Source: a virus | UHGV virus genome: UHGV-0041835 | DNA length: 18,062 nt | Strand: one strand, 5' to 3' | Shown: positions 7,695 to 18,012 of the stretch, in pieces | Position numbering within the stretch: the first letter of the stretch is position 1 | Layout of the letters: the number at the start of each line of letters is the position of its first letter | Translations under genes and position numbers: made by a program | Notes under the pieces: model-generated | Told to the model about the DNA's origin: nothing | The model's input: only the letters and a program-made list of their open reading frames with translations | Database searches by the model: none

Positions 7695-7726
7695 AATGAC
7701 TCCTGTGGATTGATCCAGTAATGACC

Positions 7727-8023
7727 TCAGAATTCCATCTGGATTTGTTCAGAACGCTCGGTTGCCGCCGGGCGTTTTTTATTGGTGAGTCCATCAAGCG
7801 CATACTTAAAAGCCCTGCTAATCGGACTGATGTCTGATGCCATTCCGAAAGCACACAAGACCGAAGCAATAAATCTCCAGTCCGTTCTGCTTATCTTCGA
7901 TTCATGACAGCCAATCATCTTTGCCAGACCGCGCTGGGTAATAGCTGACAGATTGATAAGTAAATCTGTTTCTGCGCGATCAACGTCACGCTGTGATAGT
8001 TTGCTGTAACTTGTTCTTTCCAT
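7727..8023 (-). CDS. cII: CII transcriptional activator (C-terminus lambda-like, N-terminus divergent)
   Basis: 98 aa. The C-terminal TNKKRPAATERSEQIQMEF is identical to lambda CII as recalled; the N-terminal two-thirds differ. Position between cro and O. Confidence 0.8.
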   Translation of the reverse strand: MERTSYSKLSQRDVDRAETDLLINLSAITQRGLAKMIGCHESKISRTDWRFIASVLCAFGMASDISPISRAFKYALDGLTNKKRPAATERSEQIQMEF

Positions 8024-8108
8024 TTCTTAAGATTTCCAATAGTGAATAGTTAGTTGAAAGGTATGCATGGAAACGCATATGGCCTTAGTTGGTCAGATAT
8101 CTTGGAAC

Positions 8109-8164: not shown

Positions 8165-8380
8165 TTAAGCGGCTTTGTGTTCCGGCGGGAACACGTCATC
8201 AAGACTGACTTTTGCGCCTAACTTGTTTAGGCACGCAACAAGAGCACGGCATGTTTTAAGGTCTGGGAAGCGACGACCAGATTCCCAATGTCCGATAGCT
8301 CCCTGTGTGCATCCAACTGCCTTAGCAAGTGTTGTTTGAGAGATATTCAGTGACTCTCGATATTTTCGTAGGTTGCTCAT
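8165..8380 (-). CDS. cro: Cro-like HTH repressor
   Basis: 71 aa, MSNLRKYRESLNISQTTLAKAVGCTQGAIGHWESGRRFPDLKTCRALVACLNKLGAKVSLDDVFPPEHKAA, with an HTH (QTTLAKAVGCTQGAIGHW). ATG at 8380 has GGAGGG upstream; the longer track ORF runs through the operator region. Divergent from cI. Confidence 0.75.
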   Translation of the reverse strand: MSNLRKYRESLNISQTTLAKAVGCTQGAIGHWESGRRFPDLKTCRALVACLNKLGAKVSLDDVFPPEHKAA

Positions 8381-8491
8381 ATGCCCTCCATAGTAAACAC
8401 GAATAAAAAAATACAATATGTACTTTGCGAATACAAGTAAAAATACACATTGTGCATGGATGGTTCCAGTACAGAGCGTAATAATAAGGAC
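8381..8491. promoter_or_regulatory. Immunity-region divergent promoter/operator region (OR with PR and PRM)
   Basis: AT-rich intergenic space between divergent cro and cI. Contains TACA...TGTA-type inverted-repeat motifs (for example tacaatatgtact at 8412-8424) that recur near the PL candidate. A possible -10 TAATAA ends about 8 nt before the cI ATG, suggesting a leaderless PRM-like transcript. Confidence 0.6.
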
Positions 8492-9151
8492 ATGAAAATG
8501 AAATGGTATGAACTGGCTAGATCCAGAATGAAAGAGCTCGGCATAACTCAAGAGAAGTTAGCCGAAGAGCTAGGTATGACGCAGGGTGGGATTGGACACT
8601 GGTTGCGCGGATCTCGTCATCCATCTCTTAGTGATATTGGTGTGGTGTTTAAATACCTTGGTATTGATAACATATCATTCAACCACGACGGGACATTTTC
8701 ACCTGTTGGCGAATACTCATCGGCCCCAGTTAAAAAACAATATGAGTACCCTGTTTTTTCTCATGTTCAGGCTGGGATGTTCTCTCCAGAACTCAGAACC
8801 TTTACCAAAGGCGATGCGGAGAGATTGGTAAGCACAACCAAAAAAGCCAGTGACTCTGCATTCTGGCTTGAGGTTGAAGGTAACTCAATGACCGCACCAA
8901 CAGGTTCCAAACCCAGCTTTCCTGACGGGATGTTAATTCTGGTTGACCCTGAGCAAGCTGTTGAGCCCGGCGATTTCTGCATAGCCAGACTTGGTGGTGA
9001 TGAATTTACCTTCAAGAAACTGATCAGGGATAGCGGTCAGGTGTTTCTACAGCCACTAAACCCACAATACCCAATGATCCCATGCAATGAGAGTTGTTCC
9101 GTTGTGGGGAAAGTTATCGCCAGCCAATGGCCTGAAGAGACGTTTGGGTGA
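8492..9151 (+). CDS. cI: CI repressor: divergent N-terminal HTH domain fused to a lambda-type C-terminal S24 autopeptidase domain
   Basis: C-terminal half is near-identical to lambda CI as recalled, including the Ala-Gly cleavage site (VQAGMF) and the Ser/Lys dyad (GNSMTAP, FKKLIRD). The N-terminal HTH ([18 protein letters not shown]) differs. Start is uncertain among ATG 8450, 8492 and 8498. Confidence 0.9.
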
Positions 9152-9190
9152 TGAAACCACTTTTATCTACAATTTACAGGGCGGTAAACA

Positions 9191-9748
9191 TTGGCAAAAA
9201 TAGATGATTATCAGCCAAGCCAAGTAGAAGTTGATAAAGTACTTTATTGTAAAAAAATAGTTAACTTTTCTGGCGTTAAATGGAAACAGAAACCAAGTCG
9301 CTCTGATATGTGGCTACAAGCCCATATCATCCCCTTGGATGAGGATTGTATACCTATACAAGGGCTAAAGTTTGAACTGAAATGGAAACCAGATCAGGAT
9401 TCAGAACCTGATGACCCGATTTCTTACCCTAAAATAAATATTATTGCTTTCTATCATAACAAGAGGGTTTTCGCGGTAGATACCTATCACTTTGACAAAC
9501 ACACGAATAGTTACAAGGTCGATCATCCGAAGTACCAAGATATCATTTACGGTGCTCACTACCATGTATACTATGAAGAAGCTGGATACTATAGTGATAG
9601 AATAGCGTTTCCAATCGAAGATGACATAAACCCAGATGACCTGGTAGGGTATTGGAATTACTTCTGTAAACATCTGAACATAACTTACTCTGGGAGAATA
9701 CCTTTACCGCTTGAAGATGAGTCGGGGCAAATGGGGTTTGGAATATGA
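9191..9748 (+). CDS. Hypothetical protein A (185 aa), first gene of an uncharacterised cassette downstream of cI
   Basis: Open frame beginning at TTG 9191; the only in-frame ATG is 39 codons in. No recognised motif. Acidic and Tyr/His-rich soluble protein with no predicted TM segment. Visibly more AT-rich than flanking phage genes. Its stop overlaps the start of gene B. Confidence 0.6.
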   Translation: MAKIDDYQPSQVEVDKVLYCKKIVNFSGVKWKQKPSRSDMWLQAHIIPLDEDCIPIQGLKFELKWKPDQDSEPDDPISYPKINIIAFYHNKRVFAVDTYHFDKHTNSYKVDHPKYQDIIYGAHYHVYYEEAGYYSDRIAFPIEDDINPDDLVGYWNYFCKHLNITYSGRIPLPLEDESGQMGFGI

Positions 9749-10497
9749 TGTGCTCAACAGTGATCTCACAACTAGGTTTCGAATGCCATCCAATAGGCAA
9801 GACCTTGAGAATTATCAGTCCATTCACTTACTGTGATGATGGAGAGCATGTCGGTGCCTTTATCCGTGAAGTCAATGGTAGGTATTTAGTTAGTGACAGA
9901 TGCGATGCCTTAATGAATATGGAGGCAAGAGGGATCTCGCTTACCAAAAAACGACTTGATGAGATACGACAATTACTGCTTAAAGAAGGCGCAGAACTCA
10001 ATGCTCGAGGAGAAATCATTGCTTGGGCAACAGAAAAGGATGTCGGTGCGATTACATCGAACATAATTAGAGCTGGTATACTCGCATCAACTTTGTCGTT
10101 AGACTGGTATCAGCCAGTTCAAGCTGAAAAGTTTGAAAGTATGGTTATTGATTATCTATATCACACAGAGCTTAGAGACGCACTTTCTCTTCGTGAAAAC
10201 GTATATGGCTTGAGTGGACATCAAATTACCGTCCCTGTAACAATAAAAACCGACATACCTAAATACGTTTTTACATCAAGCGTGAAACACGGAGGAAGCT
10301 GGAATAGTGCTTACTCATTGCTTGGGAAACTAATTGATCTTAAAGCTTCAAGTGAGGAGTATAACAACAGATTTGTTGTTATAGACAGCGAAGCAATTGG
10401 TGATCAAATGCAACAACTCTCCTTACTCTTCCATGAATCAAGCCAAGTTCTACCATTCTCCAAAAGAGAGACTTGGGTTAAGAGACTTGCAGCATAA
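9745..10497 (+). CDS. Hypothetical protein B (250 aa), second gene of the uncharacterised cassette
   Basis: ATG at 9745 or 9748 overlaps the stop of gene A (ATGATG), implying translational coupling. No recognisable family from the sequence. Followed 5 nt later by an intrinsic terminator. Confidence 0.65.
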   Translation: MMCSTVISQLGFECHPIGKTLRIISPFTYCDDGEHVGAFIREVNGRYLVSDRCDALMNMEARGISLTKKRLDEIRQLLLKEGAELNARGEIIAWATEKDVGAITSNIIRAGILASTLSLDWYQPVQAEKFESMVIDYLYHTELRDALSLRENVYGLSGHQITVPVTIKTDIPKYVFTSSVKHGGSWNSAYSLLGKLIDLKASSEEYNNRFVVIDSEAIGDQMQQLSLLFHESSQVLPFSKRETWVKRLAA

Positions 10498-10502
10498 TAC
10501 AA

Positions 10503-10531
10503 CCCGGCCTCAGCGCCGGGGTTTCTTTTCC
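10503..10531 (+). terminator. Intrinsic terminator ending the cI-cassette operon (tImm-like)
   Basis: Stem CCCGGC/GCCGGG with loop CTCAGC, followed by GTTTCTTTTCC. Confidence 0.6.
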
Positions 10532-10543
10532 TCACGTTCGCCC

Positions 10544-10553
10544 NNNNNNNNNN
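10544..10553. other. Run of 10 N: assembly gap or contig junction
   Basis: Literal NNNNNNNNNN. The roughly 35 bp on each side are near-identical copies (cctcagcgccggggtttcttttcctcacgttcgccc versus cctcagcgccgggttttctttgcctcacgttcgccc). Confidence 0.95.
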
Positions 10554-10762
10554 CCTCAGCGCCGGGTTTTCTTTGCCTCACGTTCGCCCACCTAAAAACA
10601 CATAACCAATTATATTTATTGAAAAATAAATAGATGCAACCCACTAAACCACGCAATTCTGATCTCTCCTTACATCGCCGAGGCAATACATCCACGCTAA
10701 AAAACAACACTATTAAATACAAAGCGTTATAAAAAACCACGCCAACTTACAACAAATTGTAT

Positions 10763-10791
10763 TGATCTTGTAAAGTACATATCGTACTATT
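10763..10791 (+). promoter_or_regulatory. PL candidate promoter with overlapping OL operator motif
   Basis: TTGATC (10763-10768), a 17-nt spacer, then TACTAT (10786-10791). The spacer contains AGTACATATCGTACT (10774-10788), an inverted repeat that matches the OR-region motif AGTACATATTGTA. Confidence 0.5.
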
Positions 10792-10836
10792 TAACCGTCA
10801 GCAGGACGCTGGAAGCCAAATGGAACAGACTGGCAG

Positions 10837-10881: not shown

Positions 10882-10979
10882 GATCACCCAACCACATAAG
10901 CTGTGGGATGCAATGCCGAAGCAACCGTCTCAGGAGGAGCTTCGAGATTGCATCGCCAAAGTTTATTCGGGAGGAATCC

Positions 10980-11252
10980 ATGTCCAGAAAAACAGAATTT
11001 AAAGGCACCGCAGCTTCTCGCCGTAGAGCTCGTCGCGCAAATCTGCAAAGTCAGGAGGCGATCAGCTCCGACAAGCTACACAGGCCAACCCCTTCACGAG
11101 TGGTCTTGCAATGCAAGCTCAAACCAGCAATGAGAGCAGAAGTGATAACTCTGACAACGTTGACCAGAAAATATGAAGGTTCAACTTGTCTTCCGAACGT
11201 AGCTCTTTACGCGGCAGGCTACCGGAAATCAAAACAACTGACGGCGAGATGA
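10980..11252 (+). CDS. N: Antitermination protein N (Arg-rich motif type, H-19B/933W-like)
   Basis: 90 aa from MSRKTEFKGTAASRRRARRANLQ... (N-terminal arginine-rich motif), with C-terminal ...LPNVALYAAGYRKSKQLTAR resembling the N proteins of P22-like and Stx phages as recalled. GGAGG lies 5-9 nt upstream of the ATG; the track ORF is extended upstream. Confidence 0.75.
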   Translation: MSRKTEFKGTAASRRRARRANLQSQEAISSDKLHRPTPSRVVLQCKLKPAMRAEVITLTTLTRKYEGSTCLPNVALYAAGYRKSKQLTAR

Positions 11253-16643: not shown

Positions 16644-16880
16644 ATGTCTCGACTAATCACTTTACAGGACTGGGCTAAAGAAGAATTTGGGGACTTAGCA
16701 CCAAGTGAGCGAGTTCTGAAAAAATACGCGCAAGGGAAAATGATGGCCCCACCCGCTATAAAAGTTGGTCGCTACTGGATGATTGACCGAAATTCCCGTT
16801 TTGTAGGAACGCTTGCAGAACCGCAACTCCCAATAAACGCAAACCCAAAACTCCAAAGGATAATCGCTGATGGCTGCTAG
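16644..16880 (+). CDS. xis: Excisionase (Xis)-like protein
   Basis: 78 aa, MSRLITLQDWAKEEFGDLAPSERVLKKYAQGKMMAPPAIKVGRYWMIDRNSRFVG. The pattern LTLQ(D/E)W...PP(A/V)(I/V)K.GR resembles lambda Xis. AGGAGG lies 6 nt upstream, and the 3' end overlaps the int start. Confidence 0.7.
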   Translation: MSRLITLQDWAKEEFGDLAPSERVLKKYAQGKMMAPPAIKVGRYWMIDRNSRFVGTLAEPQLPINANPKLQRIIADGC

Positions 16881-18012
16881 ACCCCGATCTCACAAAATCT
16901 CTATACCCAATTTATATTGCAAATTAGATAAGCGAACCGGAAAGGTATATTGGCAATACAAACATCCACTATCCGGTCGTTTTCATAGCTTAGGAACTGA
17001 TGAGAATGAAGCAAAACAAGTTGCTACTGAAGCAAATACCATTATTGCTGAACAACGTACCAGACAAATATTAAGCGTCAATGAGCGTCTGGAAAGAATG
17101 AAAGGCAGGCGCTCAGACATTACGGTGACAGAATGGCTTGATAAATATATTTCTATCCAAGAGGACAGGCTGCAACATAATGAACTAAGACCCAACTCCT
17201 ATCGGCAAAAAGGCAAACCCATTCGTCTTTTCCGTGAGCATTGTGGAATGCAACACCTCAAGGATATTACCGCACTTGATATTGCCGAAATAATTGATGC
17301 TGTAAAGGCTGAAGGTCATAACAGGATGGCGCAAGTCGTGAGAATGGTGTTGATCGACGTCTTCAAAGAAGCACAACACGCAGGACATGTTCCGCCAGGA
17401 TTTAACCCAGCGCAGGCAACAAAACAACCGCGAAATCGAGTAAACCGCCAAAGATTGTCACTGCCCGAATGGCAGGCAATATTTGACAGCGTAAGCAGAC
17501 GGCAGCCCTATTTAAAATGCGGCATGCTACTTGCTCTTGTTACTGGACAACGTTTAGGCGATATCTGCAATTTGAAATTCTCTGATATATGGGACGACAT
17601 GTTGCACATTACTCAGGAAAAAACCGGTTCAAAACTTGCTATTCCGCTTAACCTGAAATGCGATGCTCTGAATATTACCCTTCGTGAAGTTATATCTCAG
17701 TGCAGGGATGCTGTTGTTAGTAAATATCTGGTCCATTACCGTCACACTACCTCTCAAGCAAACAGAGGAGACCAGGTTTCTGCGAATACTCTGACAACGG
17801 CTTTTAAAAAGGCCCGGGAAAAATGTGGCATAAAATGGGAGCAAGGAACTGCGCCCACATTTCATGAGCAGCGATCTCTGTCAGAACGGTTATATCGGGA
17901 ACAGGGTCTGGATACGCAAAAGTTGTTAGGCCATAAATCCAGAAAAATGACCGACCGATACAATGATGATCGTGGTAAAGACTGGATTATCGTAGATATC
18001 AAAACAGCATAG
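16870..18012 (+). CDS. int: Tyrosine integrase (lambda Int family)
   Basis: 380 aa. The C-terminal catalytic region has R...HxxR...Y motifs (TFHEQRSLSERLY...LLGHKSRKMTDRYNDDRGKDW) aligning with lambda Int as recalled; the N-terminus is arm-binding-like. Confidence 0.9.
   Translation: MAARPRSHKISIPNLYCKLDKRTGKVYWQYKHPLSGRFHSLGTDENEAKQVATEANTIIAEQRTRQILSVNERLERMKGRRSDITVTEWLDKYISIQEDRLQHNELRPNSYRQKGKPIRLFREHCGMQHLKDITALDIAEIIDAVKAEGHNRMAQVVRMVLIDVFKEAQHAGHVPPGFNPAQATKQPRNRVNRQRLSLPEWQAIFDSVSRRQPYLKCGMLLALVTGQRLGDICNLKFSDIWDDMLHITQEKTGSKLAIPLNLKCDALNITLREVISQCRDAVVSKYLVHYRHTTSQANRGDQVSANTLTTAFKKAREKCGIKWEQGTAPTFHEQRSLSERLYREQGLDTQKLLGHKSRKMTDRYNDDRGKDWIIVDIKTA

Follow-up and report, generated by a model that had tools for sequence, protein, structure and literature searches.

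A 13-base element recurs at two early control regions of the lambda-like prophage DNA analysed here (the window, i.e. the whole stretch of 18,062 bp). One copy lies between cro and cI and the other upstream of the N antiterminator gene, which raises the question of whether the element belongs to repressor operators and, if so, to those of which immunity type. We conclude that it is very probably the core of OR1 and OL1 in a six-site, lambda-type switch of the VT2-Sakai immunity group. The genes concerned are the following:

cro, 8165 to 8380, minus strand: 71 aa, HTH_3 fold, recognition helix TQGAIGHW
cI, 8492 to 9151, plus strand: alternative start at 8498, recognition helix TQGGIGHW
N antiterminator, 10908 to 11252, plus strand: first gene of the PL operon, Pfam N_peptide E = 9.7e-33

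Distribution of the repeated motif

The initial annotation had placed one element in both the cro-cI intergenic region and the PL spacer, and a pattern search confirmed the two copies. The first is AGTACATATTGTA at 8412-8424 on the minus strand (plus-strand reading tacaatatgtact); the second is AGTACATATCGTA at 10774-10786 on the plus strand, with the longer form AGTACATATCGTACT at 10774-10788. When up to two mismatches were allowed, the 13-mer matched three times in the 18,062 bp, the third match (8468-8480) falling within OR3. Shuffled sequences gave 0.69 matches on average and reached three in 6 of 200 shuffles. The symmetric core TACR-N3-YGTA is also present exactly three times in the window, at the same places, i.e. 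OR1, OR3 and OL1. The operator reading was to be given up if the motif proved similarly frequent throughout the window; both the 13-mer and the core are confined to the two control regions. Taken with the alignments of relatives described below, the pattern search and shuffle control indicate a motif that is specific to these regions and better conserved than the background.

Six putative operator sites

The 13-mer is the core of OR1 and OL1, the highest-scoring operators, and six 17-mers were identified in all (given without strand):

OR1, 8409 to 8425: AAATACAATATGTACTT, minus strand AAGTACATATTGTATTT; top matrix hit
OR2, 8441 to 8457: AAATACACATTGTGCAT; matrix hit, also in AP005153 and published lists
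OR3, 8467 to 8483: CAGTACAGAGCGTAATA; pattern and core search, AP005153, published lists
OL1, 10773 to 10789: AAGTACATATCGTACTA; pattern search, matrix hit, AP005153, published lists
OL2, 10748 to 10764: TACAACAAATTGTATTG; matrix hit, AP005153 feature
OL3, 10715 to 10731: AAATACAAAGCGTTATA; matrix hit, AP005153 feature

A half-site matrix was built from OR1 and OL1 alone and scored over about 18,000 positions. The 17-mers starting at 8441, 8467, 10715 and 10748 occupied between them the 6th, 10th, 11th and 14th ranks, and these four extra sites, all adjoining the two promoters, scored 7-10 bits versus about 21 for OR1 and OL1. In 5,000 dinucleotide shuffles of both AT-rich regions, four extra sites never arose (mean 0.19).

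Each 17-mer is an imperfect palindrome in which two half-sites of the common form (A/T)A(A/G)TAC(A/G) enclose a 3-bp centre, so that one consensus and two-fold symmetry run through all six. A5 and C6 are invariant among the half-sites (12/12), with A2 found in 11 of them and T4 in 9; position 7 is always a purine, nine times A and three times G. Per site, 3 to 6 of the 8 symmetric position pairs match, and OR2, OL2 and OL3 have one weak half-site each. The sites form two triplets, one between cro and cI (8409-8483) and one upstream of N (10715-10789), with centre-to-centre spacings of 32 bp (OR1-OR2), 26 bp (OR2-OR3), 25 bp (OL1-OL2) and 33 bp (OL2-OL3).

The motif first noticed is real, but it is the core of only two of the six sites. 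OR1 and OL1 had been found in this way, whereas OR2, OR3 and OL3 had been missed and OL2 had been read in the wrong register. The TACA...TGTA repeat reported near 10747-10760 does exist (TACAACAAATTGTA, at 10748-10761 within OL2), but its TACA-N6-TGTA register was dropped for the ACA-N3-TGT register common to all sites, centred on 10756. The leftmost TACA of OL2 is not conserved, since relatives read TAGAACA there. A candidate seventh site, located between OR1 and OR2 (GAATACAAGTAAAAATA, 8428-8444), was also rejected: its left half alone fits the consensus, and TAC is changed to TGC in relatives.

Presumed promoters

Three promoters were assigned around the sites:

Presumed PR, 8408 to 8436, minus strand: -35 TTGTAT (8436-8431), 17-nt spacer, -10 TATTTT (8413-8408); read from the sequence
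Presumed PRM, 8457 to 8485, plus strand: -35 TGGATG (8457-8462), 17-nt spacer, -10 AATAAT (8480-8485); predicted only
Presumed PL, 10762 to 10790, plus strand: -35 TTGATC, 17-nt spacer, -10 TACTAT; read from the sequence

The OR triplet overlaps the presumed PR and PRM hexamers. OR1, with the first motif copy, lies within the PR spacer and overlaps the PR -10; OR3 occupies the equivalent position in PRM, within the spacer and overlapping the -10. OR2 adjoins the PRM -35 and has its centre at about -43 relative to the PRM start, which is presumed to lie near the ATG at 8492. On the other side, OL1, with the second motif copy, lies within the PL spacer and overlaps the PL -10; OL2 shares 3 bp with the PL -35.

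The presumed PR agrees with the 'putative major rightward promoter' of AP005153, PRM has a matching feature in that record and is invariant in relatives, and a promoter feature is annotated at the place of PL, for which relatives have TTGACC or TTGACT as -35. PR and PL are laid out alike, i.e. a -35, 5 nt, then AAGTACATATYGTAYT continuing into the -10. An alternative PR (TTTACT, 17 nt, TATTGT) is possible by its letters; the layout parallel to PL and AP005153 favour TTGTAT, 17 nt, TATTTT. A sigma-70 consensus scan called none of PR, PRM and PL, because their hexamers fall under its 9-of-12 threshold, and thus gives these promoters no independent support.

CI and Cro

The genes flanking the OR triplet encode a repressor with HTH_3 and Peptidase_S24 Pfam domains and a Cro with an HTH_3 domain. 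CI and Cro are 35% identical over the HTH and have in common the recognition helix TQG(G/A)IGHW. In CI, residues 1-83 form a distinct HTH domain and residues 84-219 correspond to the C-terminal S24 domain of lambda CI; a search of the PDB for the N-terminal domain returned no structure of it, the best matches being remote (E about 2e-4 to 5e-4). At the DNA level, cI is 93.4% identical to lambda from 8741 onwards, and OR and OL are without lambda similarity. Since lambda has a near-identical C-terminal domain with another N-terminal domain and other operators, and since lambda similarity starts at 8741, the N-terminal domain, cro, OR and OL travel as one immunity unit. The description of CI as a hybrid was thus apt, the protein being a mosaic joined at residue 84, but its specificity had been called unknown, whereas it is of the VT2-Sakai type, with operators annotated in AP005153.

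The VT2-Sakai immunity group

The window belongs to a common lambda-like E. coli prophage whose immunity region is, by sequence comparison, of the type found in the Shiga-toxin phage VT2-Sakai. Cro is identical (71/71) to that of VT2-Sakai, Nil2 and 2B8, and also to that of PhiR57_1, and CI is identical (219/219) to that of Nil2, 2B8 and PhiR57_1; in record AP000363, the cI reading frame is broken after 30 codons. The 17-mers of OR1, OR2, OR3 and OL1 (4/6) equal the published VT2-Sa set, whereas OL2 and OL3 (2/6) each differ from the published sites by one base. Assignment to the group rests on this identity of CI, Cro and operator 17-mers. The OR DNA of the window is 95-97% identical to that of the group. 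Differences include the PL -35 (TTGACC in the group, TTGATC here) and the DNA between cI and OL, where the group has orf22 and the window has two ORFs resembling the PADLOC candidate PDC-M24. Members of the group include VT2-Sakai/Sp5, Stx2 II, the Morioka Stx1-converting phage, Nil2, 2851, 1717 and YYZ-2008.

The operator sites were already known: GenBank AP005153 annotates six 17-mers as 'putative operator', and the putative OR1-3 and OL1-3 of the group are given in AP005153/AP005154, in Yin et al. 2015 (Table S5) and in Sedhom & Solomon 2023 (Table S1). As reported in the works that cite it, Fattah et al. 2000 is a further source for these putative operators. In Table S5 of Yin et al. 2015, the OR and OL labels are swapped relative to map positions. 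A full-text literature search for AAGTACATAT returned unrelated papers only.

Of 5,426 complete genomes, 566 contained the OR region; its carriers include Nissle 1917, ATCC 11775 (the type strain) and the Sakai-type Stx2a phages of O157:H7. Exact copies of both OR and OL of the window were found in non-Stx strains, e.g. Nissle 1917 and ATCC 11775.

Conservation in diverged relatives

In the relatives Louie, Dewey and phi458, OR is only about 85% identical, and the six best matrix hits are nevertheless these six positions. Variable alignment columns among these relatives amounted to 4/48 in the half-site cores, 5/18 in the centres and 5/36 in the outer positions, versus 46/115 in non-operator intergenic DNA. 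OL3 stands as an island of conservation. OR2 is kept in all three relatives, its changes being confined to the centre or directed towards the consensus, as in Dewey (GTG to GTA). The OR1-OR2 spacing is 32 or 33 bp among relatives. Judged from these DNA-level alignments, whose divergence sufficed for footprinting by comparison, the same six sites are kept while the DNA between them drifts.

Comparison with other switches

The gene order cro, OR, cI, cargo, OL, N is that of lambda, which likewise has three 17-bp dyad operators per region, O1 in the spacer and -10, an OL2 that overlaps the PL -35 by 3 bp, an OR-OL distance of about 2.3 kb and a nearly identical CI C-terminal domain. Here, OR2 adjoins the PRM -35. 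In contrast, the half-site is AARTACA here and TATCACC in lambda, the CI N-terminal domains are only remotely similar (E about 5e-4), Cro has an HTH_3 rather than a lambda Cro fold, and the spacings are 32/26 and 25/33 bp instead of 24/23 and 24/20 bp.

In phage 434, the repressor and Cro are both of the HTH_3 type with closely similar recognition helices and read the same operator set, ACAA-N6-TTGT. The parallel with 434 and P22 lies in TQGGIGHW of CI and TQGAIGHW of Cro, although the operator sequences of both phages are unrelated to those found here; P22 C2 itself is only marginally similar (E about 0.01 with Cro and 0.4 with the CI N-terminal domain).

Phages 933W and BAA2326 have Stx-associated lambdoid switches with an OR triplet as well, and their operators were characterised by EMSA and footprinting in the Koudelka laboratory. 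Both are heteroimmune to the type of the window, and their repressors and site sequences differ from those described here: 933W has 15-bp sites, with only two in OL, and the sites of BAA2326 are weakly symmetric.

The proposed switch and its alternatives

The position and dyad symmetry of the sites, their arrangement in two triplets, their conservation, and the flanking HTH-S24 repressor and HTH Cro all support the repressor-operator reading of the initial annotation, with binding itself predicted. We strongly infer a switch operated by the cognate CI and Cro. On the model of the lambda, 434 and P22 switches, both proteins would bind these sites, and the sequence in which the sites are filled, the activation of PRM and DNA looping may be analogous too. 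In a lysogen, CI dimers on OR1/OR2 and OL1/OL2 would keep RNA polymerase from PR and PL, given that OR1 and OL1 fall within the spacer and -10 and that OL2 reaches into the -35. From OR2, whose centre is at about -43 relative to PRM, CI would be in a position to activate transcription of cI, and CI on OR3 would shut off PRM when the repressor level is high. RecA-stimulated self-cleavage of CI would then allow Cro to act on the same sites.

The literature treats the 17-mers as established operators, and no measurement of a cognate repressor-operator interaction was found in it. A literature search that left aside the full texts of Fattah et al. 2000, Sato et al. 2003 and Tyler et al. 2004 retrieved neither footprinting nor EMSA nor reporter data obtained with the cognate CI or Cro. 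The sole EMSA found on these 17-mers used lambda CI, a non-cognate protein (apparent Kd 3.7-6.4 uM), and is uninformative on specific recognition.

With spacings of 32, 26, 25 and 33 bp versus 24, 23, 24 and 20 bp in lambda, pairwise cooperativity of the lambda style cannot be assumed. As the lambda-identical domain for cooperativity and looping is joined here to another DNA-binding domain and to spacings of 32-33 and 25-26 bp, we tentatively suggest, as a rather unlikely arrangement, that the cooperative pairs differ from those of lambda, e.g. OR2-OR3 with OL1-OL2, or pairs with a spacing of three complete helical turns. Comparably unlikely is that the six-site model is right only in part, OR1, OL1 and perhaps OR3 being high-affinity sites, while OR2, OL2 or OL3 would be unbound, dependent on cooperativity or read in another register, with a logic unlike that of lambda, as in 933W and BAA2326. 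The gap in matrix score between the four weaker sites and OR1 and OL1 would fit such a model, as would the restriction of the full TACR-N3-YGTA core to OR1, OR3 and OL1, the 32-33 bp spacings (not lambda-like, and variable for OR1-OR2 among relatives) and the non-canonical operator hierarchies that Koudelka's group reported in other Stx phages. Yet the four weak sites are kept in place in diverged relatives while the intervening DNA changes, and OR2 of Dewey shifts towards the consensus.

Readings that dispense with CI are far less probable. The likeness of PR and PL might stem from shared ancestry or common promoter elements alone, without a protein dedicated to binding there; both motif copies overlap a spacer and a -10, so that some similarity could arise from promoter constraints. 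This is very improbable: the dyad motif occurs six times, including places outside the promoter hexamers (OL3 and most of OR2), conservation tracks the half-site core and not the hexamers, and local shuffles never yield the cluster. Slightly less probable still is that LexA or another host regulator, or else Cro without CI, reads the sites. In its favour are the SOS link of the prophage and the frequency with which host factors target AT-rich palindromes, but a LexA box was ruled out in both control regions, no CTGT-N8-ACAG being present in 8381-8491 or 10700-10800 even with one mismatch allowed. The sites, moreover, move together with the module of cro and the N-terminal domain, and action of Cro alone is unlikely because CI and Cro have the same recognition helix.

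Implications

In the window, the six sites of the VT2-Sakai-type switch can be annotated with confidence as predicted operators. Should the cooperative pairs indeed differ, the switch logic would be unlike that of lambda despite the same C-terminal domain, a natural domain swap carried by about 10% of complete E. coli genomes. Among the lambdoid immunity groups of E. coli, the one that these sites define is one of the commonest, and in Stx phages, toxin production is gated by this switch.

Gene organization of the early region

The window corresponds to a lambdoid prophage whose early region is inverted with respect to the usual lambda map. The following genes were identified, with the Pfam evidence for each:

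7727-8023, minus strand: cII (Phage_CII, E = 7e-34)
8165-8380, minus strand: cro (HTH_3)
8492 (or 8498) to 9151, plus strand: cI (HTH_3 and Peptidase_S24)
9191-9748, plus strand: ORF in the rexA position (weak DUF6978 match)
9745-10497, plus strand: ORF in the rexB position (DUF1828)
10908-11252, plus strand: N (N_peptide)

The ORFs in the rexA and rexB positions overlap and, because they are located between cI and the OL operators, are presumably expressed in lysogens from PRM, the presumed cI promoter. Both resemble the PADLOC candidate defence system PDC-M24: the match to subunit B extends over its full length (E = 4.7e-10), that to subunit A is weak (E = 4.8e-4). Sakai-type Stx phages carry other cargo (orf22) at this position. 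Two further plus-strand ORFs of 380 aa are not related to each other, and neither is an IS element: 1749-2891 encodes a Gram-negative, prophage-borne porin (Porin_1, E = 2e-151; named ompC in the Nissle prophage) and 16870-18012 an integrase of lambda type that carries an Arm DNA-binding domain.

Protection of K-12 from lambda and Stx phages has been reported for the Nissle 1917 gene EcN_1294, called 'phage repressor (pr)' (Bury et al. 2018, PMC5987069). The published primers map to 7700-8069, over the cII ORF (exact match for the qPCR primers, one mismatch in each cloning primer), so that the gene reported as protective is the CII homologue and not the CI repressor.

CI and Cro proteins

Residues 84-219 of CI are almost identical to residues 101-236 of lambda CI, and similarity to lambda DNA starts exactly at 8741 (93.4 % over 412 bp), none being found in the CI N-terminal domain, OR, cro or OL. 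This makes CI a mosaic, in line with the hybrid nature ascribed to it in the initial annotation. PDB matches to the N-terminal domain (residues 1-83) were remote only. CI and Cro share 35 % identity over 62 residues, together with a common presumed recognition helix (TQGGIGHW in CI, TQGAIGHW in Cro). The repressor and Cro of phage 434 read the same operators, a pattern that this pair of proteins matches.

Operator-like motif and putative operator sites

The initial annotation had described an operator-like motif shared by the cro-cI intergenic region and the PL candidate spacer. Both copies were confirmed where it had placed them, i.e. AGTACATATTGTA on the minus strand at 8412-8424 and AGTACATATCGTACT at 10774-10788; the nearby repeat TACAACAAATTGTA is part of a real site, at 10748-10761, but had been given in the wrong register. 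When up to two mismatches were allowed, the 13-mer matched three times in 18 kb, always in the cro-cI or cI-N control region (shuffles: mean 0.69, at least three in 6 of 200), and the symmetric core TACR-N3-YGTA occurred exactly three times, at the same places.

Six 17-bp 'putative operator' features were transferred to the window from the homologous region of AP005153 (Morioka Stx1-converting phage), three between cro and cI (OR1-3) and three upstream of N (OL1-3):

8409-8425: OR1, AAATACAATATGTACTT
8441-8457: OR2, AAATACACATTGTGCAT
8467-8483: OR3, CAGTACAGAGCGTAATA
10773-10789: OL1, AAGTACATATCGTACTA
10748-10764: OL2, TACAACAAATTGTATTG
10715-10731: OL3, AAATACAAAGCGTTATA

As an independent test, a half-site matrix was built from OR1 and OL1 only, the two sites recognized initially. 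The remaining four 17-mers ranked 6th, 10th, 11th and 14th of about 18,000 positions, and four such extra sites were obtained in none of 5,000 dinucleotide-preserving shuffles of both AT-rich regions (mean 0.19). Among the 12 half-sites, A5 and C6 are invariant, A2 is present in 11 and T4 in nine, while position 7 is A in nine and G in three, giving the consensus (A/T)A(A/G)TAC(A/G) followed by 3 bp and its mirror image. The operator interpretation of the motif is supported, though it was incomplete, with two of six sites recognized and a third mis-registered.

Promoter geometry

The presumed promoters were read from the sequence:

10762-10767 (-35 TTGATC), 17 nt, 10785-10790 (-10 TACTAT), plus strand: PL
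8436-8431 (-35 TTGTAT), 17 nt, 8413-8408 (-10 TATTTT), minus strand: PR
8457-8462 (-35 TGGATG), 17 nt, 8480-8485 (-10 AATAAT), plus strand: PRM

All three were left uncalled by a consensus scanner, being below its threshold, so that they are assigned by their position and by the AP005153 annotation. At both presumed PR and PL, the operator begins 5 nt past the -35 and extends into the -10, the same placement as that of lambda OR1 and OL1; OL2 overlaps the -35 of PL by 3 bp. With the presumed PRM, OR2 would lie at about -43 and OR3 would cover the spacer and -10; the PRM start would fall on the ATG at 8492, giving, as in lambda, a leaderless cI message. The further in-frame ATG at 8498 is preceded at Shine-Dalgarno distance by AAGGA (8486-8490), an arrangement that would fit a longer transcript from PRE. 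Three kinds of cI start are given in database records (TTG 8450, ATG 8498 and a truncated ORF). In VT2-Sakai AP000363.1, a stop following codon 30 interrupts the cI frame and the annotated cI is a C-terminal fragment, owing to a sequencing error or else to a true frameshift of the isolate; a full CI of 219 residues is encoded in the remaining Sakai-type records that were examined.

Conservation among relatives

Phages ev207, ev017, PhiR57_1 and PhiR63_2 share the immunity region at 99.9 % identity. For its cro-cI and PL-N parts, identity is about 96.5 % to the Stx phages Nil2, 2851, 1717 and YYZ-2008 and to the Morioka Stx1 phage; the OR region is 96.7 % identical in VT2-Sakai and Stx2 II. The OR segment was found in 566 of 5,426 complete E. 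coli genomes (100 % identical in Nissle 1917 and ATCC 11775), the OL segment in 564 at a query coverage of at least 80 %. In the more diverged phages Louie, Dewey and phi458 (OR about 85 % identical), the six best matrix matches are the same six positions in each. Their substitutions affect the site centre (OL1 ATA to AAA), exchange allowed bases (OR1 ACA to ACG) or bring a site nearer to the consensus (Dewey OR2 GTG to GTA). CI and Cro of the compared phages are identical or nearly so, with identical HTH.

The sewage-isolated Klebsiella phage phiKp_30 (LC768498.2, 917-1180) shares cro, OR1 and OL1 with the window but has no cI, only about 130 bp between OR3 and OL2, and changes away from consensus in OR2 and OR3 (TTTTGCAT, GCGCAATA). 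This phage resembles a derivative of VT2-Sakai-type immunity that has no repressor and is possibly virulent.

Previous descriptions of the putative operators

These sites are not new: as putative operators, they have already been annotated and published for VT2-Sakai-type immunity. For Sakai-type (PST1) Stx2a phages, they were listed by Yin et al. 2015 (PMC4587872, Table S5), citing Fattah et al. 2000 and describing them as the "same as operator sequences in E. coli O157:H7 Sakai", and Sedhom & Solomon 2023 (PMC10742460, Table S1) gave the same VT2-Sa set. OR1, OR2, OR3 and OL1 agree exactly with both lists, OL2 and OL3 differing by one base each; the OR/OL labels in the Yin table are swapped relative to map positions. 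Published binding to these 17-mers was found for lambda CI only (apparent Kd 3.7-6.4 uM; the native lambda sites gave 0.2-3 uM in that assay), which, the protein being non-cognate, is no test of the switch model. Cognate biochemistry was found in the literature for heteroimmune 933W and BAA2326, and none for the VT2-Sakai type.

A probable lambda-style switch

The motif and sites are, with high confidence, best explained by a lambda-style switch. CI dimers on OR1/OR2 and OL1/OL2 would repress PR and PL; CI at OR2 would be positioned to activate PRM, OR3 would serve negative autoregulation and, after induction, Cro would act at the same sites. The analysis demonstrates the sites with their specificity, symmetry, positions and conservation, and what kind of proteins CI and Cro are; we infer binding, the order of occupancy, PRM activation and looping between OL and OR by way of the lambda-type C-terminal domain.

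Shared promoter ancestry with no protein binding was considered as another source of the motif; in the six-phage alignments, 4 of 48 core columns vary, as do 5 of 18 centre and 5 of 36 outer columns, against 46 of 115 in the non-operator intergenic sequence. A host factor such as LexA at the sites was considered too, but neither OR nor OL contains a LexA-type CTGT-N8-ACAG with at most one mismatch. Over the whole window, this pattern with one mismatch gave 17 matches (shuffle mean 6), probably reflecting CTG/CAG codon usage, a feature lost in dinucleotide shuffles.

A partial six-site model was also weighed. Centre-to-centre spacings are 32 bp (OR1-OR2), 26 (OR2-OR3), 25 (OL1-OL2) and 33 (OL2-OL3), compared with 24, 23, 24 and 20 in lambda, and therefore which dimers cooperate cannot be read off from lambda. 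The sole spacing that varies among relatives is OR1-OR2 (across 8425-8441 in the window), which is 32 bp both here and in the Sakai type and is extended by a one-base indel to 33 bp in Louie, Dewey and phi458. In lambda, this spacing is the one critical for cooperativity; the other three are constant.

For the lambda-style switch, OR1 and OL1 are separated by 2,364 bp, of which 46 bp are an apparent assembly artefact. At 10508-10553, 10 Ns (10544-10553) follow a 36-bp near-duplicate of downstream sequence (cctcagcgccgggg...cgccc and cctcagcgccgggt...cgccc), where PhiR57_1 has one copy without gap; the extra bases look like a scaffold join within the terminator downstream of the cI operon. The adjoining 10554-10668 is 89.6 % identical to lambda 35708-35819 (between rexB and OL3) and, with the 8741 junction in cI, forms lambda-like borders around non-lambda cargo. 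The CI N-terminal domain together with cro, OR and OL acts as a single immunity cassette.
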